DNA of 64,000 bases from Bacillota bacterium. Its GTDB lineage: Bacteria; Bacillota; Clostridia; Lachnospirales; Lachnospiraceae. This document shows, piece by piece, positions 4,283 to 60,569 of this stretch; the stretch's first letter is position 1; every line of letters starts with the position of its first letter. The notes below the pieces were generated by a model that had not been told where the DNA came from, ran no database searches, and worked only from the letters and a program-made list of their open reading frames with translations. The position numbers and the translations under genes were made by a program. Location: assembly GCA_029558315.1 (NCBI GenBank), contig JAKQFQ010000359.1, positions 15,789 through 79,788 on the forward strand, written 5' to 3'.

Positions 4283-4294
4283 AAAGTAGGTCAA

Positions 4295-5462: not shown

Positions 5463-5491
5463 TTGAAAGAAAGTGGCGTGTGTGTTATAAT
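5463..5491 (+). promoter_or_regulatory. Sigma-A-type promoter upstream of pseB
   Basis: TTGAAA (5463-5468), a 17-nt spacer ending in TGT (extended -10), then TATAAT (5486-5491). It sits in the 110-bp gap before pseB, one of only a few gaps longer than 80 bp in the window. Confidence 0.65.
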
Positions 5492-6546: not shown

Positions 6547-6551
6547 TCAGG

Positions 6552-7601: not shown

Positions 7602-7613
7602 GGGTGGCAGAGA

Positions 7614-8645: not shown

Positions 8646-8657
8646 GAGATGTTTGTG

Positions 8658-9857
8658 ATGGAGCAGAATCAACCGGCAATTACGGGTGGAAAACCAATCA
8701 GAGAGACCAGATTATTCTATGGTCATCAGTATATCGACGAGGCTGATATTGAGGCTGTTGTAGAGGTGCTAAAGAGCGATTATCTGACTTGCGGACCAAA
8801 GATTACGGCTTTGGAGGAGAGATTATGTGCAATTACGCAGGCGAAACATGCCTGTGTTGTCAGCAACGGAACGGCGGCATTGCATATCGCCGGCCAAGCC
8901 CTTGGAATCGGTAAAGGGGATGAAGTTATTACGACCCCTATTACGTTTGCGGCATCTGCTAATTGCGCACTCTATTGTGGCGCGATTCCGGTGTTTGCAG
9001 ATATTGATGAAAAAACATATAACATTGATGTGAATTGTATAGAGAAATGTATCACAGAGAAGACCAGAGCGGTAGTTGCTGTGGATTATACAGGACAGGC
9101 TGTGAATCTGCAGGCAATCAAGGAGCTTTGCAGGAAACATTCCCTGTATCTGATTGAAGATGCGGCACATGCTATCGGAACCAAATATCAGGGACAACCG
9201 GTGGGCAGTATTGCCGATCTTACGACCTTTTCGTTCCATCCTGTAAAAACTGTAACAGGTGGAGAGGGAGGCGCTGTGCTTACTAATGATGATGAACTGG
9301 CGAAGAAAGTTGCATTGTATCGTTCACATGGAATAACCAGAGAGCCGGAACTGATGGAACAGGAATCCGAGGGTGGATGGTATTACGAGCAGGTTGCACT
9401 TGGCATGAATTATAGAATGACAGACATTCAGGCCGCACTGATTCTAAGTCAGCTGGATAAGCTTGATTCATTTAGTGCAAGAAGAAGTGAGATTGTAAAG
9501 CAGTATAATGAAGCTTTTCTAAAGATAGATGGAGTTATCGTTCAGCAGGAAATCCCGGAATCGGAAACAACGAGACATTTGTACATCTTGAGATTGGACC
9601 CTGAGAAATTGAAATGTACCCGTGCGGAGTTCTTTCTGGCAATGGCGGCAGAAAATATTTGCTGCAATGTCCATTACATCCCTGTATATCGACATCCATA
9701 TTATGTACATCTTGGATATCCTAAGGGATTATGCCCTAATGCAGAAGCACTCTATGAGAACATGATGAGTCTTCCGTTATACTATTCACTGACGAATCAG
9801 GACGTAGAGGATGTAATTGGTGCAGTCAGAAAACTGGTAGCGTATTATCACATTTAA
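8658..9857 (+). CDS. pseC: UDP-4-amino-4,6-dideoxy-N-acetyl-beta-L-altrosamine transaminase (DegT/DnrJ/EryC1 family)
   Basis: YGHQYIDEADIEAVVEVLKSDYLTCGPK and SFHPVKTVTGGEGG (PLP lysine region). The start is moved from 8649 to the ATG at 8658 because AGGAG (8644-8648) abuts 8649 with no spacer. Confidence 0.85.
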   Translation: MEQNQPAITGGKPIRETRLFYGHQYIDEADIEAVVEVLKSDYLTCGPKITALEERLCAITQAKHACVVSNGTAALHIAGQALGIGKGDEVITTPITFAASANCALYCGAIPVFADIDEKTYNIDVNCIEKCITEKTRAVVAVDYTGQAVNLQAIKELCRKHSLYLIEDAAHAIGTKYQGQPVGSIADLTTFSFHPVKTVTGGEGGAVLTNDDELAKKVALYRSHGITREPELMEQESEGGWYYEQVALGMNYRMTDIQAALILSQLDKLDSFSARRSEIVKQYNEAFLKIDGVIVQQEIPESETTRHLYILRLDPEKLKCTRAEFFLAMAAENICCNVHYIPVYRHPYYVHLGYPKGLCPNAEALYENMMSLPLYYSLTNQDVEDVIGAVRKLVAYYHI

Positions 9858-9871
9858 CCCGGAGGAATACA

Positions 9872-10915
9872 ATGGAGTTATCCATTATTGTACCTGTCTA
9901 TAATATGGCAGCAGATGACAAATTAAAGCATTGTATGGATTCTTTGATTGCACAAACAGTCGATGAGTATGAAATTATTGCAGTGGATGATGCCTCGACA
10001 GATGAGTCGTTAAAAGTGCTTAGATCCTATGAGAAAAAATATCCCGGGATTGTAAAGGTAATTGCATGCAAGGAGAATCAGCGACAAGGCGGAGCAAAGA
10101 ATGCAGGCTTGGAACAGGCATCAGGAAAATGGGTTGGATTTATTGACAGTGATGACTGGATTATGCCGGATATGTATCAAAAGCTAATTAAGAAGGCTGA
10201 TGCAACCGGGGCAGATCTGGTGGGCTGTGATTATGCAATCGTTACCTCCTATTGTGAACCGGATAAAATAAAACAAACACAAATGCAGGTTGTTGAGAAT
10301 AATACGCAGCAACAGACCGGTGTCCTGGACGAAGAGAAGCATAAGAAACTAATCTTAAGATCCGGCAGTATGGTGGTCAAAATATATCTAAGACAGATTA
10401 TAGAAGAGAACCACCTGCGTTTCCCGGAGAGGATGTTTTATGAGGATAATTGTGCGGCACCGCTTTGGTCGATGTATTTTACCCATTTTGAGAGAGTGGA
10501 AGAACCCCTGTATTTTTATCTGACCTTACCGGCTTCTACTACGCATCATGTGACCTGGGATAAATGCCAGGATCGGATGAAGGCGGCAAAGCTGTTGCTT
10601 GAGGAGAGCAGAGCGAGAGGCTTTTTTCAACAGTACCAGAAAGAGATTGAGTTTCGATTTACAGAATTATTTTACGTGACAACGTTATTTTCCTATATGT
10701 ATTCCGGAAAGAGACAATCGATAAAGCATACTCGATGGTTGAAAAAGCAAATGCTTGAGGCCGTCGATCGTTTTTGGGAAAATCCATATTATACTTCCAT
10801 GGTAGCTGCGGAAGATCAGAAATTCATTCGGATTCAGATGAAATCCAATGTCATTTTTTTCTTATATTACCGATTGCTTTTTGCATATCGGAAGCTTAGA
10901 AAAGGCGTAAGATAG
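9872..10915 (+). CDS. GT2-family glycosyltransferase embedded in the pse cluster
   Basis: LSIIVPVYNMA...IIAVDDASTDES...IDSDDW (GT-A DXD region). Confidence 0.8.
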   Translation: MELSIIVPVYNMAADDKLKHCMDSLIAQTVDEYEIIAVDDASTDESLKVLRSYEKKYPGIVKVIACKENQRQGGAKNAGLEQASGKWVGFIDSDDWIMPDMYQKLIKKADATGADLVGCDYAIVTSYCEPDKIKQTQMQVVENNTQQQTGVLDEEKHKKLILRSGSMVVKIYLRQIIEENHLRFPERMFYEDNCAAPLWSMYFTHFERVEEPLYFYLTLPASTTHHVTWDKCQDRMKAAKLLLEESRARGFFQQYQKEIEFRFTELFYVTTLFSYMYSGKRQSIKHTRWLKKQMLEAVDRFWENPYYTSMVAAEDQKFIRIQMKSNVIFFLYYRLLFAYRKLRKGVR

Positions 10916-10928
10916 GAGAGGGATTAAG

Positions 10929-11621
10929 ATGAAAGCCTGTGCGATTATTACGGCCCGTGGTGGCAGCAAGAGAATTCCCAGAAAGAATATTAAAGATTTC
11001 CTTGGGAAACCGATATTAACCTATTCAATTGAAGCTGCACTTGCCTGTGGAGTATTTGACGAAGTGATGGTTTCGACAGATGATGAAGAGATTGCAGAGA
11101 TCGCAAGAGAGGCAGGAGCCTGCGTACCTTTTGTCCGAAGCGAAAGCAATTCCAATGATATGGCGACAACGGCAGAGGTTATTGATGAAGTTGTGAAGTG
11201 CTATCAGATGGAGGAAAAAAAATTTGACTTCCTGTGCTGCATTTATCCGACGGCTCCTTTTCTTACTGCAGATGCGATAAAATGTGCAATGAAAACATTA
11301 GAGGAAAGTGAGGCTGATTCAGTTCTCCCAGTGGTTCGTTTTTCCTTTCCACCGCAACGCAGTGTTGTTATGAAGGACGGATATCTAGAACCGAAATGGC
11401 CTGAGAATATGCAGAAAAGATCACAGGATTTGGAAGAAATGTATCATGACTGCGGACAGTTCTACTGCCTGCGGACCAGCAGCTTCCTCAAACAGAAGAA
11501 AGTGGTAATGGAGAAGACGTTACCGTATTTTCAAGAGGAAATGACAGTACAGGATATTGACACATTAGAAGACTGGAAGATTGCAGAAGTGAAATATAAG
11601 ATCTGGAAAGATAGAATCTGA
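10929..11621 (+). CDS. pseF: Pseudaminic acid cytidylyltransferase (CMP-NeuAc synthetase family)
   Basis: AIITARGGSKRIPRKNIKDFLGKP N-terminal cytidylyltransferase motif. About 230 aa, in pse context. Confidence 0.8.
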   Translation: MKACAIITARGGSKRIPRKNIKDFLGKPILTYSIEAALACGVFDEVMVSTDDEEIAEIAREAGACVPFVRSESNSNDMATTAEVIDEVVKCYQMEEKKFDFLCCIYPTAPFLTADAIKCAMKTLEESEADSVLPVVRFSFPPQRSVVMKDGYLEPKWPENMQKRSQDLEEMYHDCGQFYCLRTSSFLKQKKVVMEKTLPYFQEEMTVQDIDTLEDWKIAEVKYKIWKDRI

Positions 11622-11628
11622 GGATAAT

Positions 11629-13611
11629 ATGGAGCTATATCTTAGAAAAGCAACACAATTGGATAAGAAACTTATTTTCGACTGGGCCAATGAAGCCAAG
11701 ACCAGGAATAATTCTTTCCATAGTGAGCCCATCCTTTGGGAGGAACACGAAGCGTGGTTTGAGAAGGTGTTAGAAGCCAAGGACACCTTTCTTTTTGTAT
11801 GCATGGATTTTATGGTGCCGGTTGGACAGATTAGAGTGCAACTGACATCGGATCGGAAAGGTATGATCAGTTATAGCGTGGAAGAGAGCCATCGGGGGAG
11901 AGGTTACGGAAGAACTATGCTGGCACTTCTGGAGAAGGAACTGATTAAAAATAAGCTTATCGGCTATACCTTGATTGGAGAGACCAGGCCGGAGAATGAA
12001 GCTTCTGGACGGGCCTTCCTTTCACAGGGATATCTAAGAACTGAAGCAAGTAAAGAAAAGAATTGCTACTGTAAGGAAATAACTGCTCAACACAAGGAAA
12101 CAGCAGAGAAGAATGATACTGCGTTACAAAAGCGAGAGGCTAAGTTTGAAATTCTTCGTGTGTTGGCAATGATGATGATCATTGTTTTGCACTATCTAAG
12201 CAAGGGAGAATTGCTTGGAAATATAACTGATGGTATGAATCGAGCGAATTGCTGGTTCTGGTTTCTTGAGGCAGCATGTCTTGTCAGTGTGAATGTCTAT
12301 GTTTTAATTAGCGGTTATTTTCTGGTAAACAGCAGATTTTCTCTTGGTAAATTAGTGAATCTATGGTGCAGAATTCTGTTCTATAGTATCGGTGTGAGTG
12401 TTGTTTTGGTGATAACAGGTGTAGTGGATTATAGAAGCATTCTGAATTTTTATGATTTACAGTTCTTTTGTCTGCCGACCATCAATGGCCATTATTGGTT
12501 TGCAACCTCATATGTGATTTTTTATCTGCTGGCACCATTTCTTGGAAAAGCAGCGAAGGCGATGAAGAAAAAGGAGTTGAAGCTTCTTATTTTTCTGCTG
12601 TTAATTCCATTTTGTTTCATCAAATCTATCCTTCCGGTTGCCTTACCGGTTGATGATCTTGGGAACAGCTTTGTCTGGTTTATCTGCCTGTTTTTTATTG
12701 CGGCGTATATCAGACTTTATGGAATTGCATTCTTTAAGACAAAATGGGCAGGATTGGCTGTTTATCTGATGTCTGTTGGTGGAATCCTGCTTTCGATACT
12801 TGCAGCAGGAAGCCTGGTGAAGCAGACAGGAAACTATGAGTATGCACTTACGATTCCGTCAAATTACAATTTCTTCTTTGTATTAACGGGATCGGTGGGA
12901 TTGTTCTGTGCATTTTTGAAGATGCAGTTTAAGAATAATATTTTAACAGGATATCTGGTCAGAATTGCTCCGTATACATTTGGTGTGTACCTGCTGCATG
13001 AGCATCTGCTGCTTCGTTATGAGTGGCCTGGGTGGCTTTGGGTTTCAAATATTTACGGTGGCTATCGCGTTCTTCACATTTTATTCTGTACAATATTTGT
13101 CTTGGTAATTGGAATTCTTGTCGACTGGATAAGAAGTTTGATTTTTACCGCAATCCAGAAATTAATAATTTTTTCTTTGAAAATATATTATGCCAAGCAG
13201 GAGGTCTGGGATTATCTGATTTTTGGTGCATTGGCCACAGTAGTGAACTGGGTGGTTTATATTGCATTTGCATACTGTTTTCTTGCCCCATTCTGGCAAT
13301 ATCATGATACTATAAGAGAAATGACTGCGAATGTGATTGCATGGATTGTTGCAGTGCTCTTTGCTTATTGGACCAACAGAACATTCGTCTTTCATAGTAG
13401 TGCGAAGGGAACAAAGGCAATGCTTAAGGAGTTTAGTTCCTTTATCAGTGCAAGAATTTTTTCGTTCCTTGTAGAGCTTGGCATGTTTTATATCTTTGTA
13501 GACTGGCTTGAGATCAATGACCTGATATCAAAGCTGATTATCAGTGTTGTTGTGATTATATTAAACTATATATTCAGTAAGCTGTGGATTTTTAAGAAAA
13601 AAGAAAAATAG
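11629..13611 (+). CDS. pseH: Tri-domain fusion: PseH-type GNAT N-acetyltransferase + acyltransferase-3 (10-TM-like) + GtrA-like 4-TM domain
   Basis: aa 1-~160 are PseH-like GNAT (LRKATQLDKKLIFDWAN...EEHEAWF...HRGRGYG). aa ~170-520 are the AT3 type (FEILRVLAMMMIIVLHY..., many hydrophobic segments). aa ~530-660 are the GtrA type (YLIFGALATVVNWVVY...AYWTNRTFVF...LNYIFSKLWIFKK). It is a single uninterrupted ORF. Confidence 0.75.
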   Translation: MELYLRKATQLDKKLIFDWANEAKTRNNSFHSEPILWEEHEAWFEKVLEAKDTFLFVCMDFMVPVGQIRVQLTSDRKGMISYSVEESHRGRGYGRTMLALLEKELIKNKLIGYTLIGETRPENEASGRAFLSQGYLRTEASKEKNCYCKEITAQHKETAEKNDTALQKREAKFEILRVLAMMMIIVLHYLSKGELLGNITDGMNRANCWFWFLEAACLVSVNVYVLISGYFLVNSRFSLGKLVNLWCRILFYSIGVSVVLVITGVVDYRSILNFYDLQFFCLPTINGHYWFATSYVIFYLLAPFLGKAAKAMKKKELKLLIFLLLIPFCFIKSILPVALPVDDLGNSFVWFICLFFIAAYIRLYGIAFFKTKWAGLAVYLMSVGGILLSILAAGSLVKQTGNYEYALTIPSNYNFFFVLTGSVGLFCAFLKMQFKNNILTGYLVRIAPYTFGVYLLHEHLLLRYEWPGWLWVSNIYGGYRVLHILFCTIFVLVIGILVDWIRSLIFTAIQKLIIFSLKIYYAKQEVWDYLIFGALATVVNWVVYIAFAYCFLAPFWQYHDTIREMTANVIAWIVAVLFAYWTNRTFVFHSSAKGTKAMLKEFSSFISARIFSFLVELGMFYIFVDWLEINDLISKLIISVVVIILNYIFSKLWIFKKKEK

Positions 13612-13625
13612 GAACGGGAGAGACG

Positions 13626-14066
13626 ATGAAAAAATTATTTGATCAACTAATTAAGTTTGGCCTTGTAGGTGCGTTTTGTTTTGTGATTGATTTTACGATT
13701 ACGGTCGGAATGAATCGAATCGGGGTAAATTATCTGATTGCTGCATTCTTTGGCTTTGTTATTTCCGTAACCGTGAACTATGTTCTTAGCTTTAAATTCG
13801 TGTTTAAGAGAAAAGAGAACCTGGACCGAAGAGCAGAGTTTATGATCTTTTTGATTCTCAGTGTTATCGGCCTTGGGATTAATGAACTGATTATGTATCT
13901 GTGTGTGGATCTGGTATACTATCAACAGGCCTGGTTACAGGAGAAAATCATAGAAAATACCGCTGTTATTGCCGCCAAAATTATTGCTACGGCAGTTGTT
14001 ATGGTATATAACTTTGTAACAAGAAAGCTTTTTCTCGAGAAAAAGGAAAAAACAAAGTCAGAATAA
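13626..14066 (+). CDS. gtrA: GtrA-family small membrane protein (putative polyprenyl-phosphate-sugar flippase component)
   Basis: 146 aa with four hydrophobic segments. LIKFGLVGAFCFVIDFTI...NYVLSFKFVFKR...YNFVTRKLFLF-type GtrA pattern. Confidence 0.8.
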   Translation: MKKLFDQLIKFGLVGAFCFVIDFTITVGMNRIGVNYLIAAFFGFVISVTVNYVLSFKFVFKRKENLDRRAEFMIFLILSVIGLGINELIMYLCVDLVYYQQAWLQEKIIENTAVIAAKIIATAVVMVYNFVTRKLFLEKKEKTKSE

Positions 14067-14077
14067 GGGAAACAAGA

Positions 14078-14108
14078 ATGAAAAAGAAAATGAAAAAGAA
14101 AATGAAAA
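14078..14108 (+). repeat. 12-bp tandem repeat (ATGAAAAAGAAA x2 plus a partial third copy) spanning the start codon
   Basis: atgaaaaagaaa atgaaaaagaaa atgaaaa, encoding MKKKMKKKMK. It provides three in-frame ATGs. Confidence 0.9.
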
Positions 14109-15859
14109 CAACAGCAGTCATGATCATTCCAATTGTCTTTTTGCTTTATTCGATGATTGGAATTAACCAGGGAGCAGATGTGACAGACACAACGTATAGT
14201 CTGGGCAATTATCTCTTCTTTAATGAAATGACGAGCGGATGGAAATATGCAATTTATCTTGCTAATTGTGTCGGCAGCCTGCTGATGACAGTGACGGGAG
14301 GTAAACTGATTCTGATGAATGCAGTTACACGGTTGTTTGTTGCGGCTATGGCAATTGCTGTCTTTTTCGTGTTACGTAAGAGAGTTCCGTCCCTGATTTT
14401 ATTTATTGGAGAAATTCTTGCAATTAGTATGTGCTGGTGCCCAACTGTAATTCTATATAATTATCTTACGTATTTCTTTCTGACAATAGCAGCATTATTG
14501 CTATATTCGGGGCTGCAGCGGCAAAAGAAAAGTCTTCTTCTGTTAGCCGGGATTCTTCTGGGATTAAATGTTTTTGTCAGAATTTCCAATCTGACACAGA
14601 TGTCACTTATTCTGGTCGTTTTGTATGACGCATGGAGTAAGAGAGCAGAAACCAGGTGGGGAATAATTTTCTGGAAGAATACTTTGTTTTGCGTTTTGGG
14701 ATATGGAATCGGATGCGTGGGAATGCTTGGAGTTATGTTGCTTGTAGAAGGAAGCGATGGATATCTGTCGATGATTTCCTGGTTGTATGGTATGTTTACT
14801 TCATCAGACAGCAATGGCGGGTACTCCATGTTTGATATGGTGAAGTCGATTGTGGGTAATTATGTGGGGAATGTGAAATGGCTATTGCTCATGGCTGCCG
14901 GTATTGCAGCCGGAACTGCGATGTTTTTGATTGCTAAGAGTAAAATGTTATGGATCAAGAGAATACTTTTTGCAGGTGGAGTAGGAATCCTGTTCCTGTA
15001 TTTCTATCGAAATGGGATGTTTACCGGTCTGTACTATAGTGTTGGAAGTATCTTTTGCATCAATGTGGTATTTCTGCTCATCGCCTATATTGTACTTCTT
15101 ATGGCACTGTTTCACAGAACGCTGGAACAGGAAGACAAATTACTTGCACTGCTGGCTTTTCTGATTCTGCTATTTACACCACTGGGAAGTAATAATCATG
15201 TATATACGATTATGAACAACCTCTTTTTCCTGGCTCCGGTCACTTTGATGCTGTTTTATAAAATGCTTACTCCATTTTTGCCTAAAGAACAGAGTTTTCC
15301 GCTTGCTTTTATGAGTATGGCATTTTTGATTCTATTCGTTATTCAGGCTGTAATGTTTCATTCCTCCTTTGTCTTTCGTGACGGAACCAATGGGGAGAAG
15401 CGTGATACGGTAATTGCAGGGAATAGTGTGATGAGCGGTATGATCACTAACGCTGCTCATGCACAGGCAATCGAGGAACTGGAGAATTATACAATGCAGA
15501 ATCATCTGCAGGGAAGGTATGCGTTATTCTATGGCAACATCCCAGGGGCACAATATTTGCTTAAGATGCCTTGCGCAATTTCTTCAACCTGGCCGGATTT
15601 AGACAGTTACTCGTATGAACAGTTCCTCGAGGAGAGCACTGTGTTTGAAAATGCAGAGACACTACCGCTTTTTGTGTTATCACCAGAAGTTGCTGCGTAT
15701 GTGACAGAAGATTCAGAAGGGATGCAATATCTTCTGATCGATCAGCATTTATATGAGAAAGATCAAAAGCTTGACCGAATCAGAACGATAATATTAGAAT
15801 ACAATTATAAGGAGATTTTTGGAAATCAAGAATTTGTCCTGATGGAAGGAAGCAGATAA
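14078..15859 (+). CDS. Large polytopic membrane protein, candidate GT-C-type extracytoplasmic glycosyltransferase
   Basis: 593 aa. The N-terminal ~430 aa are strongly hydrophobic and the C-terminal ~150 aa are soluble. An acidic stretch follows the first hydrophobic segment (NQGADVTDTTYSLGNY). It sits next to gtrA. The function is inference only. Confidence 0.45.
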   Translation: MKKKMKKKMKTTAVMIIPIVFLLYSMIGINQGADVTDTTYSLGNYLFFNEMTSGWKYAIYLANCVGSLLMTVTGGKLILMNAVTRLFVAAMAIAVFFVLRKRVPSLILFIGEILAISMCWCPTVILYNYLTYFFLTIAALLLYSGLQRQKKSLLLLAGILLGLNVFVRISNLTQMSLILVVLYDAWSKRAETRWGIIFWKNTLFCVLGYGIGCVGMLGVMLLVEGSDGYLSMISWLYGMFTSSDSNGGYSMFDMVKSIVGNYVGNVKWLLLMAAGIAAGTAMFLIAKSKMLWIKRILFAGGVGILFLYFYRNGMFTGLYYSVGSIFCINVVFLLIAYIVLLMALFHRTLEQEDKLLALLAFLILLFTPLGSNNHVYTIMNNLFFLAPVTLMLFYKMLTPFLPKEQSFPLAFMSMAFLILFVIQAVMFHSSFVFRDGTNGEKRDTVIAGNSVMSGMITNAAHAQAIEELENYTMQNHLQGRYALFYGNIPGAQYLLKMPCAISSTWPDLDSYSYEQFLEESTVFENAETLPLFVLSPEVAAYVTEDSEGMQYLLIDQHLYEKDQKLDRIRTIILEYNYKEIFGNQEFVLMEGSR

Positions 15860-16987
15860 ATGATTAATTTTAATGTACCGCCATATACGGGAAAAGAGAT
15901 GGATTACATCAAGCAGTGTGTTGAAGCACAGAAAATATGCGGAGACGGGCAGTTTACCAGAAAATGTAATGAGTGGATAGAGAAGAAGATGAAAGTCAGA
16001 AAGTGTCTGCTGACAACCTCCTGTACGCATGCAACAGAAATGGCTGCATTACTTGCAGGTATTAAAGAGGGGGATGAGGTGATTATGCCTTCCTATACTT
16101 TTGTTTCTTCTGCGAATGCTTTTGTGCTTCGTGGTGCGAAGGTTGTATTTGTTGATATCAGACCGGATACCATGAATATGGATGAAAATCTGATCGAACA
16201 GGCAATTACTGAAAAAACGAAGGCAATTGTTCCGGTGCATTATGCCGGTGTAGCTTGTGAAATGGATAAAATAATGGAGCTGGCAAAGAAATATCGTTTG
16301 CTTGTCATTGAGGATGCAGCACAGGGAGTCATGTCGAATTATCATGGACAGGCACTTGGTACGATTGGTGATCTGGGATGCTACAGTTTTCATGAAACCA
16401 AGAATTACAGTATGGGAGAAGGCGGAGCTCTTCTGATGCGGGACGAGTTGTACATTGAAGAAGCGGAGATTATTAGAGAAAAAGGAACGGATCGTAGTCG
16501 CTTTTTTAGAGGACAGGTTGATAAATATACCTGGGTTAATTACGGCTCATCATATCTGCCAAGTGATATGAATGCAGCATATCTGTATGCACAGCTGGAA
16601 TTGGCAGAAGAGATTAATCAAGAAAGACTTGCCATCTGGAACCGATACTATGAAGGCCTTCGTCCACTGATGGAAGAGGGCAGACTACAGTTGCCTACAA
16701 TACCGGAAGGCTGTGTTCATAATGCACACATGTTTTATGTGAAAGCTGCAGATTTTGAAGAAAGAACGGCCTTGATCTCCTTTTTGAAGGAACAGGATAT
16801 CTTGTCGGTATTTCACTATATACCACTTCATACATCTCCGGCAGGAAAACAGTTTGGAAGATTTAATGGAGAGGATGTCTATACCACCAAGGAGAGCGAA
16901 AGACTGACAAGGCTTCCGCTATATTATAACATGACCCGGGAGCAGAATGAATATATCATTGATAAGGTGAAGGAGTTTTACCGCTAA
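15860..16987 (+). CDS. wecE: dTDP-4-amino-4,6-dideoxyhexose aminotransferase (WecE/RffA-like, DegT family)
   Basis: Collinear by eye with E. coli WecE: FNVPPYTGKEMDYI, CGDGQFTRKC, EVIMPSYTFVSSANAFVLRGAKVVFVDIRPDTMNMDE, VPVHYAGVACEMD, SFHETKNY, REKGTDRSRFFRGQVDKYTW, VFHYIPLH, TKESERLTRLPLYYN. Confidence 0.85.
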   Translation: MINFNVPPYTGKEMDYIKQCVEAQKICGDGQFTRKCNEWIEKKMKVRKCLLTTSCTHATEMAALLAGIKEGDEVIMPSYTFVSSANAFVLRGAKVVFVDIRPDTMNMDENLIEQAITEKTKAIVPVHYAGVACEMDKIMELAKKYRLLVIEDAAQGVMSNYHGQALGTIGDLGCYSFHETKNYSMGEGGALLMRDELYIEEAEIIREKGTDRSRFFRGQVDKYTWVNYGSSYLPSDMNAAYLYAQLELAEEINQERLAIWNRYYEGLRPLMEEGRLQLPTIPEGCVHNAHMFYVKAADFEERTALISFLKEQDILSVFHYIPLHTSPAGKQFGRFNGEDVYTTKESERLTRLPLYYNMTREQNEYIIDKVKEFYR

Positions 16988-16991
16988 ACAT

Positions 16992-18701
16992 ATGAAGAAG
17001 AAGGAAATGGCAATTTGTGCCGTGATTACAATTGGTTTTTTTGCAGTCATTGCGATGTGCTTTGATATGATGTATTGTCTTAACGATGATCTCATGATAC
17101 AGAGTATTCTTTCGGGTGGCTTTAGCGCAAAACCGAGCGGAATGAGTGTCTATCTGAGTCAGCCGTTAAGTTCCCTGCTGAGCTTTTTATATTCAATTAT
17201 TCCTGGTGTGCCCTGGTTGGGGGCTTTTTTCTGTACCTGCTATATTGTTGGCTTCTTTCTGATACTATACCGCCTTTTTTTACTGTTTCATTCTAAAAAG
17301 GAGCAGATTCTGGCGGCTGTAATCTGTATAAGTGCTTTTCTTGCTTTGTGTCTGAATAGTTATGTAATGATTCATTATACTGTCGTAGCTGCAATCACAG
17401 GTGGCTGCGGTATTTTTATGATGGTAACGGATAATCTGTTAGATAAACCGCGTTTTGGAAGGCGAATTGTTTCTGTGATTCTTCTTTGGTTTTGCTATCT
17501 GATTCGGACAAAGGTTTTTTTCCTGCTGATCCCATTTATCCTGTGTACACTGGCTTTGGATGTAATGGGAGACCATTCCAAAAAACACATGAAGCAGCTG
17601 ATTAGCTATCTTCTGGTGCTTTTTGGTGGACTAATGATTCTGATTGGAGTGAACCAATTCTGTTATTCCGAAGAGGCATGGCAGCAGTATCTGGCATATA
17701 ATGATGCCAGAACAGAAGTTTATGATTATCGCGGAATCTGGACTGATATAGATTCACTGCAATACTATCAGGAACAGAAAATTACAGAAGAGCAGCTTTT
17801 GATGTATCAAAGCTACAATATTATGCTTGATGATAATGCCGGGAATCTACAAGGAACCCAAATATTACAAAAGATTGCAGATAATCCGAACATTCCCGGA
17901 ACACAAGTATCCATTGTTAACAGAATCAAGAATGCATTATGGATTTACAAAGACCAGACAATTCATTCAGAGGATGGATATCCCTATAATTATTTGGCAA
18001 TAGGGATGTATTTACTTCTTGGTATTGTAATCCTTAGAGCTAAGAGATATTGGCATTGTTTGATTCTATTGCTAAGCGGTGGGGCGAGAAGCAGTTTATT
18101 CCTTTATCTCTATGCCTTTGGACGTTATCCAGAGAGAGTGACGCTTTCTATATATCTGGTGGAATTTCTCTTCCTTATGGGGTATTTGCTGTATCTTACA
18201 TTAACATCAAGGGACAGCCCAAAGAAGAGATATGTACAGGAAAGCATATTACTGCTTGTTTTTCTCTTGATTTCTGTTAATGGCATCAGCGTAACAATAC
18301 AGGATTGCAGGGAACAAAAATCTGTTAATGAAGCAGAGGATGTGGTATACTCATACATGGAATCCCATCCGGAGAATTTTTATTTTTTGGATGTCTATAC
18401 TACGGTATATCACACAAGAGGTGTATTTGATCCGATGGACAAGGAACCGGAGAATTATCTGTATCTTGGTGGCTGGATGACAGGAAGCCCATTGGTAACG
18501 ATGAAAAAAGAGTATTTTGGAATCGAAGAGATTAAAGATGCCTTGTTATATGCTGATAATGCCCTGTTTATCACCAGGGATGGAACCGGAATGACAGCAG
18601 AAAATCTGGAAAAGTGTCTGGGAGTGGAAGAAGGATATTTTCAATTGGTAGATATGTTACAGGGGGGAAATGATAATTTTTTGATTTATCAGGCGCAGTA
18701 A
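16992..18701 (+). CDS. Large polytopic membrane protein with a C-terminal soluble domain, candidate GT-C-type transferase
   Basis: 569 aa. Hydrophobic segments run to about aa 440. An NDD motif follows the first segment (CLNDDLMIQSIL). No family recognised. Confidence 0.4.
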   Translation: MKKKEMAICAVITIGFFAVIAMCFDMMYCLNDDLMIQSILSGGFSAKPSGMSVYLSQPLSSLLSFLYSIIPGVPWLGAFFCTCYIVGFFLILYRLFLLFHSKKEQILAAVICISAFLALCLNSYVMIHYTVVAAITGGCGIFMMVTDNLLDKPRFGRRIVSVILLWFCYLIRTKVFFLLIPFILCTLALDVMGDHSKKHMKQLISYLLVLFGGLMILIGVNQFCYSEEAWQQYLAYNDARTEVYDYRGIWTDIDSLQYYQEQKITEEQLLMYQSYNIMLDDNAGNLQGTQILQKIADNPNIPGTQVSIVNRIKNALWIYKDQTIHSEDGYPYNYLAIGMYLLLGIVILRAKRYWHCLILLLSGGARSSLFLYLYAFGRYPERVTLSIYLVEFLFLMGYLLYLTLTSRDSPKKRYVQESILLLVFLLISVNGISVTIQDCREQKSVNEAEDVVYSYMESHPENFYFLDVYTTVYHTRGVFDPMDKEPENYLYLGGWMTGSPLVTMKKEYFGIEEIKDALLYADNALFITRDGTGMTAENLEKCLGVEEGYFQLVDMLQGGNDNFLIYQAQ

Positions 18702-18717
18702 AGACTGCTGGAAAGGC

Positions 18718-19254
18718 ATGGTTAGAGTAATGAGTCAGGAATACGTTATCGTTGGAGAGAAAATCTGTCTTCGAAGGATGACAGTTGAGGATACACAACA
18801 GATTATCCAGTGGAGAAATTCTGAAGAAGTGATGGAGCAGTTCCTCTTTCGGGAGCCGTTGACAGTAAAGATGCATTTGAGCTGGATTGAGAATAAAGTC
18901 AAGACCGGATTGGTAGAGCAATTTATTGTATGCGTAAAGGAGACCGGGCGGGAAATAGGAAGCACCTATTTAAGAGACATTGACCGCAAAGAAAAAACTG
19001 CTGAATATGGAATGTTTATTGGGGAGACAGAGGAAAAAGGCAAAGGATACGGCAGGGAAATGGAAGATTTGACAACCCGTTATGCATTGGACTCTCTGGG
19101 AATGGAGAAAGTTATGATCAGAATGCTTGAGAGTAATATTGCTTCATATAAAGCTGCAATAGCGAATGGTTACCGCGTGATACCGGAGAAAGAAGAGACG
19201 ATGGTTCTGGATGGGCATCCGCAAAAGGTGATTTTTATGGAGGTGACGAAATGA
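18718..19254 (+). CDS. GNAT-family N-acetyltransferase (RimJ/RimL-like; candidate amino-sugar N-acetyltransferase)
   Basis: LRRMTVEDTQQIIQWRN...GKGYGRE...GYRV pattern. The start is uncertain (ATG 18718 has an RBS only 1 nt away; the alternative ATG is at 18730). Confidence 0.7.
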   Translation: MVRVMSQEYVIVGEKICLRRMTVEDTQQIIQWRNSEEVMEQFLFREPLTVKMHLSWIENKVKTGLVEQFIVCVKETGREIGSTYLRDIDRKEKTAEYGMFIGETEEKGKGYGREMEDLTTRYALDSLGMEKVMIRMLESNIASYKAAIANGYRVIPEKEETMVLDGHPQKVIFMEVTK

Positions 19255-20204
19255 GATTGGTGAGTTTTATCATCCCCTGTTACCGATCTGAGAAAACAAT
19301 TGGTACAGTTGTAGAAGAAATTAATCAGACAATGCAGGAACAACCTCAATATTCGTATGAGGTGATCCTGATTAATGATTGTTCTCCGGACGATACTTTT
19401 CAGACAATTAAGGAATTATGCCAGAAGGATCCGGCTGTAACCGGAATTGATTTTGCACGAAATTTTGGTCAGCACTCTGCTTTAATGGCCGGGATTCGTC
19501 AAGCCAAAGGGGAGATTATTGTCTGCCTGGATGATGATGGTCAGACACCAGCATGTGAAGCACCATTGCTTTTGGATGCATTAGAACAGGGGGCTGATGT
19601 TGCTTATGCAAGATACTCCCACAAGAAGCACTCGGTATTTCGTAACTTTGGCAGCTGGGTCAATGAGGAAATGGCAAGATTTATGCTGGACAAGCCAAAG
19701 GAATTATATATTTCAAGTTATTTTGCCGCTAAGCGTTATATCGTTGACGATATGATTAAGTATGAGAATTCTTATCCCTATGTAATTGGTCTGGTCTTAC
19801 GTTCTACCAGAAATATTGTGAATGTCGATGTGAATCATCGAAGCCGTGAGGTCGGTAATTCCGGATACACATTAAAGAAATTACTTGGATTGTGGATGAA
19901 TGGATTTACATCTTTTTCTGTTAAACCACTTAGAATTGCAACTGCAATTGGATGCTTTTTTGCAATCATAGGCTTTATCTATGGTATAATTGTTGTTATC
20001 CAAAGACTGGTTCTTCCGGATCGTGCACTTGGTTTTTCTTCGCTGATGTCAGCACTCGTGTTTTTTGGCGGTATGATTATGATTATGCTGGGGCTGATTG
20101 GTGAATATGTGGGAAGGATATATATCAGTATTAACAATTCCCCTCAATATGTAATCAAAGAGATTGTAAGACAAGAACAAAAGGAGAAGGAGAAGGTAGG
20201 ATGA
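19251..20204 (+). CDS. GtrB/ArnC-like GT2 polyprenyl-phosphate glycosyltransferase with two C-terminal TM helices
   Basis: VSFIIPCYRSEKTI...ILINDCSPDDT...NFGQHSALMAG...CLDDDGQ, then two C-terminal hydrophobic helices (IATAIGCFFAIIGFIYGIIVV; VFFGGMIMIMLGLIGEYVGRIY). This is the classic GtrB/ArnC layout. Confidence 0.8.
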   Translation: MRLVSFIIPCYRSEKTIGTVVEEINQTMQEQPQYSYEVILINDCSPDDTFQTIKELCQKDPAVTGIDFARNFGQHSALMAGIRQAKGEIIVCLDDDGQTPACEAPLLLDALEQGADVAYARYSHKKHSVFRNFGSWVNEEMARFMLDKPKELYISSYFAAKRYIVDDMIKYENSYPYVIGLVLRSTRNIVNVDVNHRSREVGNSGYTLKKLLGLWMNGFTSFSVKPLRIATAIGCFFAIIGFIYGIIVVIQRLVLPDRALGFSSLMSALVFFGGMIMIMLGLIGEYVGRIYISINNSPQYVIKEIVRQEQKEKEKVG

Positions 20205-20920
20205 GCAAAGAACTAACCAAAGAAAATGTTGTGGTTTCAGTAGTAATCCCCTGCTACAATGAGAAAGACACTCTGGAACATTTAATAGAAACCGTAAGAA
20301 ATTGCGGCTTTCAGACAGAGATCATTCTGGTAGATGACAAATCTACAGATGGAACAAGGGAACTGATTGTAAGTAAACTGGCAGGCAAGGTAGATAAGGT
20401 ACTCTTTCATAAAAAAAATATGGGTAAAGGTGCAGGGCTTCGCCATGGATTTAAGGTAGCAACCGGTGATGTGGTTATCGTACAGGATGCGGATCTGGAA
20501 TACGATCCCAAGGAATTTGATAAATTACTTGCTCCTTTTGTTTATGGCAAAAAGGACGCAGATGTTGTCTATGGTTCCAGATATGCCAGAGGAACCCAGT
20601 ATCGAGTAGAGAGCTTTTACCATTCGCTTGGTAATAAACTATTGACCTTGTTATCCAATGTGTGTTGTGATCTCTCTCTGACAGATATGGAAACATGTTA
20701 TAAAATGTTTCGTAGAGAAGTGATTCAGTCAATTGATATCAAGGAGAACCGGTTTGGATTTGAGCCGGAGGTTACAGCAAAAATCGCCAGGAGAAAAGAT
20801 AAAGTCTATGAAATCCCAATTTCATATAATCCAAGAACATTTGAACAGGGTAAAAAGATTGGCATCAAAGATGCAATCAGGGCGTTTTACTGTATCATAA
20901 GATATAATTTTTTTGATTAG
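20201..20920 (+). CDS. Soluble GT2 glycosyltransferase, DPM1/Ppm1-like (polyprenyl-phosphate hexose synthase-like)
   Basis: VSVVIPCYNEKDTL...ILVDDKSTDGT...NMGKGAGL...VQDADLEYDP motif set. 239 aa with no TM segment. Confidence 0.7.
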   Translation: MSKELTKENVVVSVVIPCYNEKDTLEHLIETVRNCGFQTEIILVDDKSTDGTRELIVSKLAGKVDKVLFHKKNMGKGAGLRHGFKVATGDVVIVQDADLEYDPKEFDKLLAPFVYGKKDADVVYGSRYARGTQYRVESFYHSLGNKLLTLLSNVCCDLSLTDMETCYKMFRREVIQSIDIKENRFGFEPEVTAKIARRKDKVYEIPISYNPRTFEQGKKIGIKDAIRAFYCIIRYNFFD

Positions 20921-20921
20921 T

Positions 20922-22316
20922 TTATGAAGCTTTATAACGCGTTTGGGAGTGAAAGAGTTCCGCAAGAAGAAGCAGACCTGCAATATAGAACAGCCCCCAG
21001 AAATACGAGAGGTATCTTCCTGTAGAACCAATGGTAATACAGCAGGCGGCAAGATTTCCTGTTAACATGATCAGAGTACATAACATAAAGCGTGCGGCAA
21101 TACTGTCGTGCGCTTTTTTTAATCGGTAAACAGAAAGGAAAAGTGCGGCAAAGTATACAACGTAGGCATAAACATAGCAAAGTGTCTTAAGCGGCGGATA
21201 CAGAAAGAAAACAGCTTCACAGGTACCGTAGAAAAACAAGGAGAAGAACCCGGACAGCCATTGCCCAAAATGACGAGGAGCCAATGCAATCAGCAGATCA
21301 TGAGCGACACTTTCATATGTATTGTAGATATCGGCATCTGAAAAGGACGGATCACTGCCATAATAAGAATTGGCCAGAGGAATATAGGAGTGAAGCTTTA
21401 AATACAGATTGGCGTCCATCAGGTGATTGCGTCTGTCAGACAACGTTGTGCCTCGATTGGCATAGACATATCCACTCGATTCAAGATCATCAAAAATCAG
21501 ATTAATAAATTCAGATTCCGGATGATTGTCAAATAAGGAGCGGTCCAAATCATCTGCCGTATAAAGAAAGTTAATCATATAACTGGTATTTGTGAATTCC
21601 GGCTTGACCGGTTCTCCAAATACATGCTGACTATAGACGAAGGTAATGGATTTGGTGATGACCAACAGCAAAATGATACCGCAAAGCATGGATCCAAGCA
21701 GAGAAAGAAATTGCTTTTTGAATTTGCGCATACTAAAAAGCAGATAAATACTTAGCAAAACGGAAAAAATTAAGGTCAACTGCATTTGTCCACGAAGAAG
21801 AATCAGTATGGCAGAACAAAGATAAGAACCTAACAGTGCTTTGGCATGATTACGACATAACGCGGTTAAAAAGAAGATCAGATACAGATAAAACAGGGAG
21901 TAACTTAACCCTTCTGTGAGGATCGTACGCTGATAGAGCAGGGGAGTGTCGCTAGTCAGCAATTCAATGCCATAAGGAAACAGGAGGAAGGGATAGAGAA
22001 TGCAATACAGGAGTGGCTTTACAGTAAAAAGCTTTCTGATCGTCATTCCAAGAGCCGTAACGGAAAAAATCGCGAGGATTGTCTGTCCAATAATAACAGC
22101 GGTGAGATAGAAATCCTCCGAGAAAAAACATCGAAAAAGTGAAAGCCATAATGGATAAAGCGGAGAACGCAGAATTAGTTTATCAATATAGCCTATACTA
22201 TCATTGGTGAATTGGGGGACAAAGTCACCCGGAAGGACAAAGAACAGAATCGTAAGGAGTAAAAGTATCAAATCGACGAGATGTTGTTTGATGAAGGTAA
22301 GTGACTTTGCTTTCAT
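20922..22316 (-). CDS. Polytopic membrane protein, ArnT/PMT_2-like GT-C candidate; paralog of 55322-56701
   Basis: 464 aa, hydrophobic throughout. The first-loop motif NDSIGYIDKLILRSPLYPLWLSLFRCFF aligns with ADSNSYIKMTTAREPVYPLLLAIFRFLF of the 55322 gene, and both share ILTEG. It is one of only two minus-strand genes. Confidence 0.55.
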   Translation of the reverse strand: MKAKSLTFIKQHLVDLILLLLTILFFVLPGDFVPQFTNDSIGYIDKLILRSPLYPLWLSLFRCFFSEDFYLTAVIIGQTILAIFSVTALGMTIRKLFTVKPLLYCILYPFLLFPYGIELLTSDTPLLYQRTILTEGLSYSLFYLYLIFFLTALCRNHAKALLGSYLCSAILILLRGQMQLTLIFSVLLSIYLLFSMRKFKKQFLSLLGSMLCGIILLLVITKSITFVYSQHVFGEPVKPEFTNTSYMINFLYTADDLDRSLFDNHPESEFINLIFDDLESSGYVYANRGTTLSDRRNHLMDANLYLKLHSYIPLANSYYGSDPSFSDADIYNTYESVAHDLLIALAPRHFGQWLSGFFSLFFYGTCEAVFFLYPPLKTLCYVYAYVVYFAALFLSVYRLKKAHDSIAARFMLCTLIMLTGNLAACCITIGSTGRYLSYFWGLFYIAGLLLLAELFHSQTRYKAS

Positions 22317-22440: not shown

Positions 22441-22490
22441 TTACTTTGTGTAGCTACGGCCAGAATGAAACACAGTATGGAGAAGTATTA

Positions 22491-24074
22491 ATGAATGAAT
22501 TAATGGAAAAGATAAAGAGTAAGGCAAAATCTCCGGATACGTATCGTTATCTGTTGTTTATTGTCTTTCTATATATGATGATCTATGCTGGAATTGGGTT
22601 TATGAATGCCGGAAATAGCTATGAACAGGCTTATTCTTTACGTCTGTTCTGTATCGGATTTGGAATTTTAGTGCTGGTGATGATGGATGTGAAACAGTGG
22701 TTTACCATATGGTCGCTGCTCTATATTCCGCTTTGTTATGTGTTTACTCATTTCGCATATGAGAAGCATTGGATTGAAGATATTTGTGAGTATCAGTTTG
22801 TAGATATTATTCGCCAGGGGAAAATGGTGATTCTGATCTGGGGACTTGTCCTGATTGCGATTATTCGTGATTTGATTAAGAATAAGGGCTGGAAGAAATG
22901 GAAAACATTCCAACCGCTGCTGGCAGTTGTCTGGCTCTTATTTATCGTATTTTTAACATTATTCAAAAGAGATTACTTCTACGCCTCTGTTTTCATCATT
23001 TCCTATAGTGCCTATTTCTACGTTAACAGTAACCCTACACGGCGTGAGCTGTTGTGGAAGGCAATGTTAAATGCTGCAGTGTTATCATTATTCTATGTCA
23101 TTTATAAATCCATGATGCATAGGCCTTATGATTGCGAGCGCTATACGACTTATTTTGTGAATGCCAATATGGCAGGAATGTATCTGGCCTGTATGGTTGC
23201 GGTACTCTTTACAAAGCTGAATCTATGGTGGGCTAAAACAGATTGTGCCAAAGGAATCAAAGTTACTGTGCTGATTTTTTACTATCTCTTAATGGGATTT
23301 ACCTGCGGACTGGTTTTATTTAACTATACGCGAACGACAATACTGGGTCTTGGCTTTGCTTTTCTGACATTGTTGATTCTCCAACTCGTGAAAGAGAAGA
23401 GAAAACTCTTCGTGTTGCTGCGCTATGGGATACTTGTTCTGGTAGCAGCAGCATTATTCCAAGTGACATATCAGGTGATTCGATATGTTCCGGCTTATAT
23501 CAATGAACCATCGTATTTTTCCGGCGAATATAATCCGGATACCAGAATAATGAAAGATGATCCTGTAGATTCGCCCAAGTACACAACAATGGAGAGTTTT
23601 CTTACCCTGGCTTTGGGCAAATGGGGAATTTATGTGGAATTCGCCGATAGCAATGAAAACGGACAGGGGAGCGTAGAGGTAGATACAAACCGTGATGTAA
23701 CCAATGGAAGAACTGAGATATGGAAGACTTATCTTGCCAGAACCAATTGGACGGGCCATTATCCTGGACATATTCTGATGGACAGCGGTTATTTCTGTTA
23801 TCATGCACATAGTACTTATTTTCATGTGCTGTATCAATATGGATTATTATGCGGAATTGTTTATGCATTGATGATTGTTGGGGCTTATGTCTTTGCCATT
23901 GTATGTTATCTGCGGACAAGACAGGCGAATTTTATGATATTCGCAGTTCTTATCACAGGAATTAATTTAATAGGACAGATTACGGAGTGGATGGGGCATC
24001 CGGCATATGTGATTTGCATGATGCTTTTCTTCACATATGGCATGCTTCTGATGGAGAAGAAAAATGAAAGATAA
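22491..24074 (+). CDS. O-antigen ligase/polymerase family (Wzy_C domain) membrane protein
   Basis: Polytopic, with a large loop carrying GRTEIWKTYL...CYHAHSTYFHVLYQYGLLCG, the Wzy_C-type H-x-H ... G motif. The start is set at ATG 22491 (GGAGAAG RBS) rather than TTG 22446. Confidence 0.7.
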   Translation: MNELMEKIKSKAKSPDTYRYLLFIVFLYMMIYAGIGFMNAGNSYEQAYSLRLFCIGFGILVLVMMDVKQWFTIWSLLYIPLCYVFTHFAYEKHWIEDICEYQFVDIIRQGKMVILIWGLVLIAIIRDLIKNKGWKKWKTFQPLLAVVWLLFIVFLTLFKRDYFYASVFIISYSAYFYVNSNPTRRELLWKAMLNAAVLSLFYVIYKSMMHRPYDCERYTTYFVNANMAGMYLACMVAVLFTKLNLWWAKTDCAKGIKVTVLIFYYLLMGFTCGLVLFNYTRTTILGLGFAFLTLLILQLVKEKRKLFVLLRYGILVLVAAALFQVTYQVIRYVPAYINEPSYFSGEYNPDTRIMKDDPVDSPKYTTMESFLTLALGKWGIYVEFADSNENGQGSVEVDTNRDVTNGRTEIWKTYLARTNWTGHYPGHILMDSGYFCYHAHSTYFHVLYQYGLLCGIVYALMIVGAYVFAIVCYLRTRQANFMIFAVLITGINLIGQITEWMGHPAYVICMMLFFTYGMLLMEKKNER

Positions 24075-53935: not shown

Positions 53936-53936
53936 G

Positions 53937-60554: not shown

Positions 60555-60569
60555 TATCGTGGAGGATGT

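Follow-up and report, generated by a model that had tools for sequence, protein, structure and literature searches.

A Lachnospiraceae gene cassette that may deliver a lipid-linked 4-acetamido-4,6-dideoxyhexose outside the membrane in an Arn-like manner

A 64-kb stretch of DNA from an uncultured member of the Lachnospiraceae (contig JAKQFQ010000359.1 of assembly GCA_029558315.1; hereafter the window, meaning the whole stretch that was analyzed) is a surface-glycan locus throughout. Within it, at 13626-20204, lies a cassette of six genes which encode a small GtrA-family protein, two polytopic membrane proteins, a WecE-type aminotransferase, a GNAT N-acetyltransferase and a GT2 glycosyltransferase. 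An initial annotation, made from the sequence, had proposed that these genes build a polyprenyl-phosphate-linked sugar of the Fuc4NAc or Qui4NAc type (4-acetamido-4,6-dideoxy-galactose or -glucose) and transfer it outside the membrane, with the same logic as the Arn pathway. The analysis described here used profile searches, structure prediction and comparative genomics, and it points to an Arn-like mechanism with Fuc4NAc as the most likely function of the cassette.

Genes of the cassette

Each of the six open reading frames (ORFs) was found exactly where the initial annotation had placed it, on the + strand. The intergenic gaps are 0-16 nucleotides (nt) with a 4-nt overlap at the GNAT/GT2_TM junction, a spacing consistent with translational coupling. 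The gene that follows, which was absent from the initial annotation, starts with a 4-nt overlap of the GT2_TM stop and is listed with them. The polytopic proteins are named P593 and P569 after their lengths, and the two GT2 enzymes are named GT2_TM, which has two C-terminal transmembrane helices, and GT2_sol, which has none.

13626-14066, + strand: GtrA-family small protein with four transmembrane segments, candidate flippase (146 aa; PF04138)
14078-15859, + strand: P593, probable GT-C-fold glycosyltransferase of an unclassified family (593 aa; AlphaFold model and Foldseek)
15860-16987, + strand: WecE orthologue, predicted dTDP-4-keto-6-deoxy-D-glucose 4-aminotransferase (375 aa; NF008687, TIGR02379)
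16992-18701, + strand: P569, probable second GT-C-fold protein, of a different unclassified family, between WecE and GNAT (569 aa; AlphaFold model and Foldseek)
18718-19254, + strand: GNAT N-acetyltransferase, Acetyltransf_3, PseH-like (178 aa; PF13302)
19251-20204, + strand: GT2_TM, ArnC/GtrB-type polyprenyl-phosphate glycosyltransferase (317 aa; PF00535 and ArnC alignment)
20201-20920, + strand: GT2_sol, second GT2, of DPM1/PpgS/AglJ type (239 aa; NCBIfam matches below cut-off)

By sequence comparison the aminotransferase, which had been called WecE-like, is an unambiguous WecE orthologue of the galacto (Fuc4N) type. It scores 650.5 bits against NF008687 (cut-off 375) and 650 bits against TIGR02379 (cut-off 435), and aligns to E. 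coli WecE (PDB 4piw) with 571 bits and 66% identity across 366 residues. The segment SFHETKN, which we take to hold the lysine that binds pyridoxal phosphate, is identical in that alignment. The putative aminotransferase 5u1z, presumably VioA, a gluco-type enzyme, scored 110 bits against the 571 of 4piw, and the predicted product is therefore dTDP-Fuc4N, not dTDP-Qui4N. The identity to the E. coli protein is unusually high across phyla, given that the host is a Firmicute, and suggests horizontal transfer.

GT2_TM matches PF00535 (96 bits, 3e-27) and, among solved structures, scores highest with ArnC (9hwj, 154 bits), followed by GtrB (5ekp, 114 bits) and dolichyl-phosphate mannose synthase (DPMS, 54 bits). 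Its residues 2-314 align to ArnC 8-322 and GtrB 28-334, which spans the GT-A domain, the juxtamembrane helices and the two transmembrane helices, and this full-length alignment bears out the description of the protein as a GtrB/ArnC-type GT2 with two C-terminal transmembrane helices. The work on ArnC defined a metal-binding motif, DADLQ, and an arginine, R205, that binds the donor phosphate, and showed that ArnC takes a 4-acylamido sugar, in its N-acylated form only (bioRxiv 10.1101/2025.01.29.634835). The stretch HRSREVGNSGY of GT2_TM aligns with HAEREFGESKY of ArnC, which holds that arginine. On these alignments GT2_TM is a full-length ArnC/GtrB-type enzyme, nearer to ArnC than to GtrB, and one that is predicted to work like ArnC yet is not an ArnC orthologue.

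The identifications of the two small proteins also stood. The GNAT matches PF13302 (78 bits, 1e-21). It scores 67 bits against the PseH model TIGR03585 (cut-off 93.1), and 23 and 17 bits against the WecD models (cut-offs 219 and 195), so that the equivalog cut-offs for WecD and PseH are both missed. GtrA matches PF04138 (79.9 bits, cut-off 26.1, 2e-22), has four hydrophobic segments, and lies directly upstream of P593 in most related loci, where it is 63-71% identical. GT2_sol scores 121.7 bits against the AglJ model TIGR04182, 80.7 against ArnC, 64.2 against PpgS and 59.6 against dolichyl-phosphate hexose transferase, all below the cut-offs, and co-occurs in about seven loci at 67-82% identity. 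It is a possible second polyprenyl-phosphate sugar synthase.

Predicted structures of the two polytopic proteins

Neither P593 nor P569 has a Pfam or NCBIfam match (P593 has none at E<=1), and searches of the PDB by sequence and by family profile returned nothing significant for either. The YfhO, GtrII and PMT_2 models found neither protein above threshold. Lenient scans of the family alignments, which hold 30 homologues of P593 and 31 of P569 down to 20% identity, gave weak contacts only: PMT_2 with 2 of the 30 P593 homologues (best 3e-5), and DUF6056 with 1 of the 31 P569 homologues (1e-4).

Informative results for the two came only from predicted structures searched with Foldseek. The structures of both proteins were read from AlphaFold (AF2) models, with a predicted local distance difference test (pLDDT) score of 89.9 and a predicted template modelling score (pTM) of 0.90 for P593, and 91.8 and 0.91 for P569. 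Searched with Foldseek against the PDB, all 22 of the best matches of the P593 model are GT-C enzymes (STT3 at 2e-5, ArnT at 1e-4, AftA, PglB, AglB, Pmt4, ALG9/12 and Emb), with template modelling scores (TM-scores) of 0.3-0.5. All 13 of the best matches of P569 are likewise GT-C enzymes (ArnT 5ezm at E 2.3e-3 and probability 1.0, DPY19, PglB, AftA, STT3, Pmt4, AglB and Emb), in a weaker fold match than that of P593, with TM-scores of 0.25-0.40. Transporters appear in both lists at probability <=0.15 only.

The conserved residues are in keeping with the folds. GT-C enzymes use an acidic motif just after the first transmembrane helix in catalysis, and a C-terminal soluble domain is also a GT-C trait. 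In P593, D37 is invariant and D34 is at least 90% conserved among the 30 homologues, just past the first transmembrane helix (residues 2-25), and in P569 the motif N31-D32-D33 is invariant among the 31, directly past the first helix (residues 4-23). Both proteins have a Lys-rich N-terminus, the first transmembrane helix, the invariant acidic motif and a C-terminal alpha/beta domain; the soluble domain of P593 is about 160 aa long and follows a polytopic N-terminal domain. The two do not seem to be paralogues, as neither BLASTP nor hhalign gave a significant match between them (hhalign probability 36%).

The initial annotation had called for a check of these proteins against transferase and non-transferase families, and the models give GT-C folds, in families without curated models. 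P593 and P569 are thus probably GT-C-fold members of two unrelated, uncurated families and putative transferases. The P593 family has at least 540 homologues, and an exhaustive profile search for the P569 family returned 6978 cluster representatives (50% identity) at E<=1e-3, and 2209 at E<=1e-30. Distant relatives of P569 (23-27% identity) have a GT2_sol-like gene directly in front of them, with which they form two-gene GT2 + P569 cassettes.

Conservation of gene order

A total of 130 loci was fetched, 44 from genomes with the P569 profile, 80 from metagenomes with the GT2, and 6 by exact protein look-up, and the proteins of the window were mapped on them with tblastn. Ninety-three loci have a GT2_TM orthologue (>=55% identity), and these were grouped into 37 clusters at 95% nucleotide identity. 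Loci are named L with a number where they need to be told apart, and the Acyl_transf_3 family of acyltransferases is called AT3.

The genes WecE-P569-GNAT adjoin one another in about 17 of the 44 genome loci, P569 stands between WecE and GNAT in nearly all lineages, and at least 11 dereplicated lineages, as well as L128 and L129, share the block (GtrA)-(AT3)-P593-WecE-P569-GNAT-GT2. Cultured carriers of the block include Lachnospiraceae bacterium XPB1003 (L017) and NK4A179 (L022). The GNAT is immediately upstream of the GT2_TM orthologue in 31 of the 37 clusters, most exceptions being truncated contigs. Upstream sequence was long enough to judge in 21 clusters, and 18 of these have an aminotransferase within about 5 kb upstream, of WecE type in about 14 and another DegT protein in 4. 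These two counts indicate that the triad of aminotransferase, N-acyltransferase and polyprenyl-phosphate glycosyltransferase is kept even when the aminotransferase is swapped. From the synteny as a whole, the invariant core is the N-acetyltransferase with the ArnC-like GT2; an aminotransferase usually comes before this pair, and GT-C genes go with it.

GT2_TM is not always found with WecE, since the orthologues of a large clade have another DegT protein as partner, or no adjacent aminotransferase; in a neighbour-joining tree of the GT2 proteins the loci without WecE form one clade. One of the four clusters with another DegT protein holds 47 contigs, most of them labelled as human-gut assemblies. 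One such locus (L079; ORRZ01000069.1, 2663-19387) encodes a GT2, a DUF6020 protein, an FAD oxidoreductase, two further GT2s, the DegT aminotransferase, a GNAT and an ArnC-like GT2 (67% identity), and continues with five consecutive polytopic proteins of 530-590 aa: two unassigned, a GtrII protein, a relative of P569 and a DUF6044 protein.

The cassette is also not an indivisible unit, as GtrA and P593 are split from WecE, P569 and GNAT in GCA_037193965.1.

A proposed pathway

The gene identities, GT-C folds, catalytic-type motifs, operon packing and conserved synteny are what the analysis shows, and from them a pathway can be proposed. WecE would aminate dTDP-4-keto-6-deoxy-D-glucose, supplied by RmlA and RmlB encoded outside the window, to give dTDP-Fuc4N. 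The PseH-like GNAT would then N-acetylate it to dTDP-Fuc4NAc, as a counterpart of the ArnA formyltransferase step, and the ArnC-like GT2_TM would load Fuc4NAc on undecaprenyl phosphate (Und-P). GtrA would flip the lipid-linked sugar, and P569 would transfer it to a cell-wall glycan, with P593 probably doing likewise at a second site. The acceptor glycan would be assembled by the neighbouring phosphoglycosyltransferase, glycosyltransferase and exporter genes, and the AT3 acyltransferase would further modify the product. The GT2 donor, the flipping, the pairing of GT-Cs with donors and the acceptor are the parts of this scheme that we infer.

Arn-like extracytoplasmic glycosylation by way of lipid-phosphate-linked Fuc4NAc is the most likely mechanism, and we hold it with modest confidence. 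The earlier proposal of an Und-P-linked Fuc4NAc/Qui4NAc-type route thus stands in its gene set, its GT-C folds and its conserved synteny, and is less secure in the donor of the GT2, in the substrate of the GNAT, which is ambiguous, and in the unity of blocks that turn out to be separable. Its two other points fared well. A cytoplasmic transferase of the WecF/GT56 type (PF07429) that would be fed by the WecE product has no match among window ORFs of at least 120 aa, although a copy elsewhere in the genome is possible. As for the novelty of a lipid-phosphate route for Fuc4NAc, a literature search of partial coverage turned up nothing contrary, and found no description of a polyprenyl-phosphate-linked Fuc4NAc/Qui4NAc donor, of these GT-C families, or of characterized Lachnospiraceae loci of this type.

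A broader statement can be made more tentatively: that Lachnospiraceae have a hitherto undescribed lipid donor, Und-P-Fuc4NAc or, more widely, Und-P-4-acetamido-4,6-dideoxyhexoses, which an ArnC-like GT2 makes from a dTDP sugar and which the enzymes of two new GT-C families use, and that the human-gut variant does likewise with a different aminotransferase. We put this somewhat below the mechanism itself, as a possibility.

The operon and the rest of the window

At 5551-20920, 14 tightly packed genes form an operon whose 3' half is the cassette. Their order is PseB, PseI, PseG, PseC, GT2, PseF, a GNAT+AT3+GtrA fusion, GtrA, P593, WecE, P569, GNAT, GT2_TM and GT2_sol. The other features discussed below are:

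5463-5491: promoter-like site, top-scoring, just upstream of PseB (consensus scan only)
5551-11621, + strand: PseB, PseI, PseG, PseC, GT2 and PseF, CMP-pseudaminic acid pathway (NCBIfam equivalogs)
11629-13611, + strand: fusion of GNAT, Acyl_transf_3 and GtrA, 660 aa (PF13302, PF01757, PF04138)
21087-21116, + strand: terminator-like hairpin, top-scoring, probable operon end (consensus scan only)
31706-32437, + strand: DUF2334/polysaccharide-deacetylase-like protein, tentative ArnD-like deacylase candidate (PF10096, 165 bits; PF01522, 4e-7)

The Pse genes all score above their NCBIfam equivalog cut-offs (PseB 540, PseI 480, PseG 180, PseC 482 and PseF 296 bits), and the gaps among the genes of this upstream half are 3-14 nt. 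The promoter scan was uninformative overall, with 63 sites against 54.6 expected. The hairpin, a 13-bp stem (6 GC pairs) with a T-run, lies 167 nt past the GT2_sol stop. The sole reverse-strand gene of the region (20922-22316, - strand) points towards the operon end, from which it is 1 nt away, and encodes a 464-aa polytopic protein, for which there was no family match and no homologue among the 130 fetched loci; it was tried as a relative of P593 and P569 and is unrelated to them.

The fusion protein, also absent from the initial annotation, consists of a cytoplasmic GNAT domain that is weakly PseH-like, a 10-helix Acyl_transf_3 domain and a C-terminal GtrA/DPMS-type transmembrane domain. It follows PseF directly and lies directly upstream of GtrA/P593 in many Lachnospiraceae loci, and in GCA_028748585.1 it is instead a P593-type GT-C that carries the fused AT3 domain (P0117, 900 aa). 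We know of no characterized protein of this architecture. From its position and domains it is a probable O-/N-acyl modification partner of the cassette.

Downstream lie genes for a Wzy_C-like protein (22446-24074), a phosphoglycosyltransferase, GT4 enzymes, a GtrII GT-C, a UDP-Glc dehydrogenase, a TviC-like epimerase and the DUF2334 deacetylase-like protein. The GtrII-family GT-C candidate (27747-29291, + strand; PF14264, 1e-37) and a 482-aa GT-C candidate (39868-41316, + strand; sub-threshold PMT_2 match, E 0.011) bring to at least four the number of extracytoplasmic glycosyltransferases that the locus may encode. An ArnA-like decarboxylase was looked for in the window and not found; the short-chain dehydrogenase/reductase at 30732 is the TviC-like 4-epimerase.

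There is no deacetylase gene inside the cassette. The DUF2334 gene, 11 kb downstream, has a weak match to the lipid-GlcNAc deacetylase model NF053788, and homologues of it (44-52% identity) lie 2.4-6 kb downstream of a GT2_TM orthologue in nine loci (L016-L018, L022, L049, L051, L052, L057 and L076). Its product could be an analogue of ArnD that unmasks a cationic amine.

Other genes of the window concern its glycans more generally. An ORF for an FdtA/WxcM-like dTDP-4-keto-6-deoxyglucose 3,4-isomerase (53880-54338, + strand) overlaps the preceding GT2 ORF by 56 nt (region 53135-54338), and encodes a second enzyme that draws on the dTDP-4-keto intermediate, in a window without RmlA/RmlB. Three PglK/MsbA-type ATP-binding cassette (ABC) exporters (1136-2881, 47039-48883 and 56733-58511, + strand), together with a GT52 (sialyltransferase-family) gene (42-1109) and a pair of DltB-like MBOAT and AlgX-like genes (2888-5440), suggest several independent routes of lipid-linked glycan export. 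Adjoining genes at 59658-63665 (+ strand) for a GT11 enzyme (alpha-1,2-fucosyltransferase family), a GT-D-like enzyme and a GT10 enzyme (alpha-1,3-fucosyltransferase with a FucT_N domain) suggest an H/Lewis-type fucosylated surface glycan, with host-glycan mimicry as a possible role.

Alternative explanations

Several observations weigh against the proposed pathway. The donor specificity of GT2_TM is not readable from its sequence, and its donor sugar is one that we infer. GT2_TM scores 187 bits against the ArnC equivalog NF007986 and misses the cut-off of 529, with PgfS at 170 bits, and in place of the DADLQ motif of ArnC, GtrB and DPMS it carries LDDDGQ, which is acidic and atypical. GT2_sol and the further GT-C candidates allow more than one pairing of the enzymes, and neither RmlA nor RmlB is encoded within the window. 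Other points concern the linkage of the genes. In GCA_037193965.1, GtrA and P593 lie beside Pse genes and the AT3 fusion (L001), and WecE-P569-GNAT lies eight genes off (L003); more generally, GtrA and P593 are tied more tightly to the AT3 acyltransferase than to the WecE block. All of the loci are from Lachnospiraceae, so the synteny could be partly inherited and not independently maintained.

One alternative is that the co-location is coincidental, with WecE and GNAT feeding a cytoplasmic Leloir glycosyltransferase, and GtrA, the GT2 and the GT-Cs forming an ordinary system of the Gtr/CsbB-YfhO type that adds a common sugar (Glc, GlcNAc or Gal) with a UDP sugar as donor. The window has more than 12 GT2, GT4 and other glycosyltransferase genes, many of which encode Leloir GT2 or GT4 enzymes that could consume dTDP-Fuc4NAc in the cytoplasm; the characterized three-component systems of Firmicutes use Glc, GlcNAc or Gal (PMC11127046, PMC8035078); the PgfS score of GT2_TM is near its ArnC score; and in L003, L006, L012 and L015 WecE-P569-GNAT is kept and the 5-10 kb that come after it contain no GT2_TM. 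Coincidence sits poorly with the GT-C gene inserted between WecE and GNAT in at least 17 loci, and with a GNAT-GT2 adjacency that is nearly invariant over the 37 clusters, with an aminotransferase of either of two types upstream in most of the informative ones. Nor was a GT56/WecF gene found in the window, or a UDP-Glc/UDP-GlcNAc tailoring gene inside the block, and we consider this explanation unlikely. A further alternative, which we find quite unlikely, keeps the lipid-linked route and changes the sugar: the GNAT would be PseH and the GT2 would load UDP-2,4-diacetamido-2,4,6-trideoxy-L-altrose or a related UDP sugar, or else dTDP-Fuc4N would be loaded unacetylated, or acylated by the GNAT domain of the fusion. 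The GNAT is closer to PseH than to WecD, and its top model is PseH (81 bits in the human-gut variant). With the Pse pathway in the same operon, this makes its substrate ambiguous, and the only other PseH candidate there, the GNAT domain of the 660-aa fusion, scores only 30 bits. L066, L089 and L033 have GNAT-GT2 with no adjacent aminotransferase and, at a distance of a few kb, just a genuine PseC, and L044, L049 and L130 keep WecE-GT-C-GT2 and genuinely lack the GNAT. Against a role in the Pse pathway, the GNAT stays with WecE-P569 and not with the Pse genes where the two are split (L001 and L003), and the GNAT domain of the fusion always follows PseF. The WecE-linked and unlinked GT2 orthologues fall in different clades, so the loci without WecE may simply carry another sugar.

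It is also conceivable that P593, P569 or both are no glycosyltransferases but polytopic envelope proteins of another kind (for example a polymerase, a ligase, a flippase or an acyl-modifying enzyme) with a similar helical-bundle architecture. Neither matches a curated family, and the Foldseek result for P569 is modest, with a best E of 2.3e-3. Yet every top match of both models is a GT-C, with transporters far down in probability; in both proteins the first extracytoplasmic loop holds the invariant acidic motif, and a soluble domain forms the C-terminus; a separate Wzy_C-like protein is encoded at 22446-24074; and the distant relatives of P569 form two-gene cassettes with a GT2. Altogether this makes a non-transferase role highly improbable.

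Comparison with known systems

The cassette is not a member of the Arn pathway, nor of the enterobacterial common antigen (ECA) pathway, and would work like Arn and the three-component glycosylation systems. Like the Arn pathway (ArnB, ArnA, ArnC, ArnD, ArnE/F and ArnT), it has a 4-aminotransferase, an N-acyltransferase, an ArnC-type polyprenyl-phosphate GT2, a small flippase candidate and a GT-C for the same order of steps, ArnC is the closest solved relative of GT2_TM, and both GT-Cs have ArnT among their best fold matches. The sugars differ, as that of the cassette would be a dTDP-linked 4-amino-4,6-dideoxyhexose and that of Arn is UDP-Ara4N. The cassette would also acylate by a GNAT (acetyl) where Arn uses a formyltransferase, has a GtrA-type candidate flippase where Arn has ArnE/F, and has two unrelated, unclassified GT-Cs. 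Its host is a Gram-positive member of the Lachnospiraceae without a lipid A acceptor, and an ArnD-like deacylase is only a distant candidate.

The Gtr (GtrA/GtrB/GtrC), CsbB-GtcA-YfhO and GacI-GacJ-GacK-GacL systems add a sugar outside the membrane to a pre-made glycan (PMC11127046, PMC8035078). They resemble the cassette in that a polyprenyl-phosphate GT2, a small flippase candidate and a GT-C are encoded together, here on one strand at 13626-20204. These systems use ready-made UDP-Glc, UDP-GlcNAc or UDP-Gal and have no tailoring genes, whereas the cassette embeds an aminotransferase and an N-acetyltransferase.

With the Fuc4NAc branch of the ECA pathway (WecE, WecD, WecF), the cassette shares a WecE of 66% identity and the same predicted product, dTDP-Fuc4N. 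It differs in an acetyltransferase that is not WecD-like and in WecF/GT56, which was not found in the window. Because a polyprenyl-phosphate GT2 and GT-Cs flank WecE instead of WecF, the sugar would come from a lipid monophosphate donor outside the membrane. The mycobacterial system of PpgS (Rv3631), Rv3632 and Rv3779 is similar in that a GT2 makes a polyprenyl-phosphate amino-sugar donor, one partner protein is GtrA-like and the decoration of a cell-wall polysaccharide is the task of a GT-C; GT2_sol is similar to PpgS in architecture, at low sequence similarity (64 bits, below cut-off). PpgS uses UDP-GalNAc, with no dedicated aminotransferase.

Significance

A short list of sugars is known to be handed over from polyprenyl-monophosphate donors outside the membrane: Glc, Gal, GlcNAc, Man, Ara4N, GalN, GalA and pentofuranoses. 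If the proposed pathway is true, 4-acetamido-4,6-dideoxyhexoses would join this list, and theirs would be, to our knowledge, the first polyprenyl-monophosphate donor built from a dTDP sugar. The principle of such delivery is established and would only be extended here; the novelty would lie in the sugar, in the dTDP origin of its donor and in the two GT-C families. It would also mean that amination, N-acylation and loading on Und-P form a general module beyond polymyxin resistance, and that Arn-type chemistry extends to the cell-wall glycans of Gram-positive bacteria. Two large families of "hypothetical" membrane proteins, one with about 7000 cluster representatives (50% identity), the other with at least 540 homologues, would gain a function. 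The cassette and its variant are widespread in gut Lachnospiraceae, with one lineage present in dozens of human-gut assemblies, and the resulting surface glycans could bear on the host-immune and phage interactions of these major commensals.

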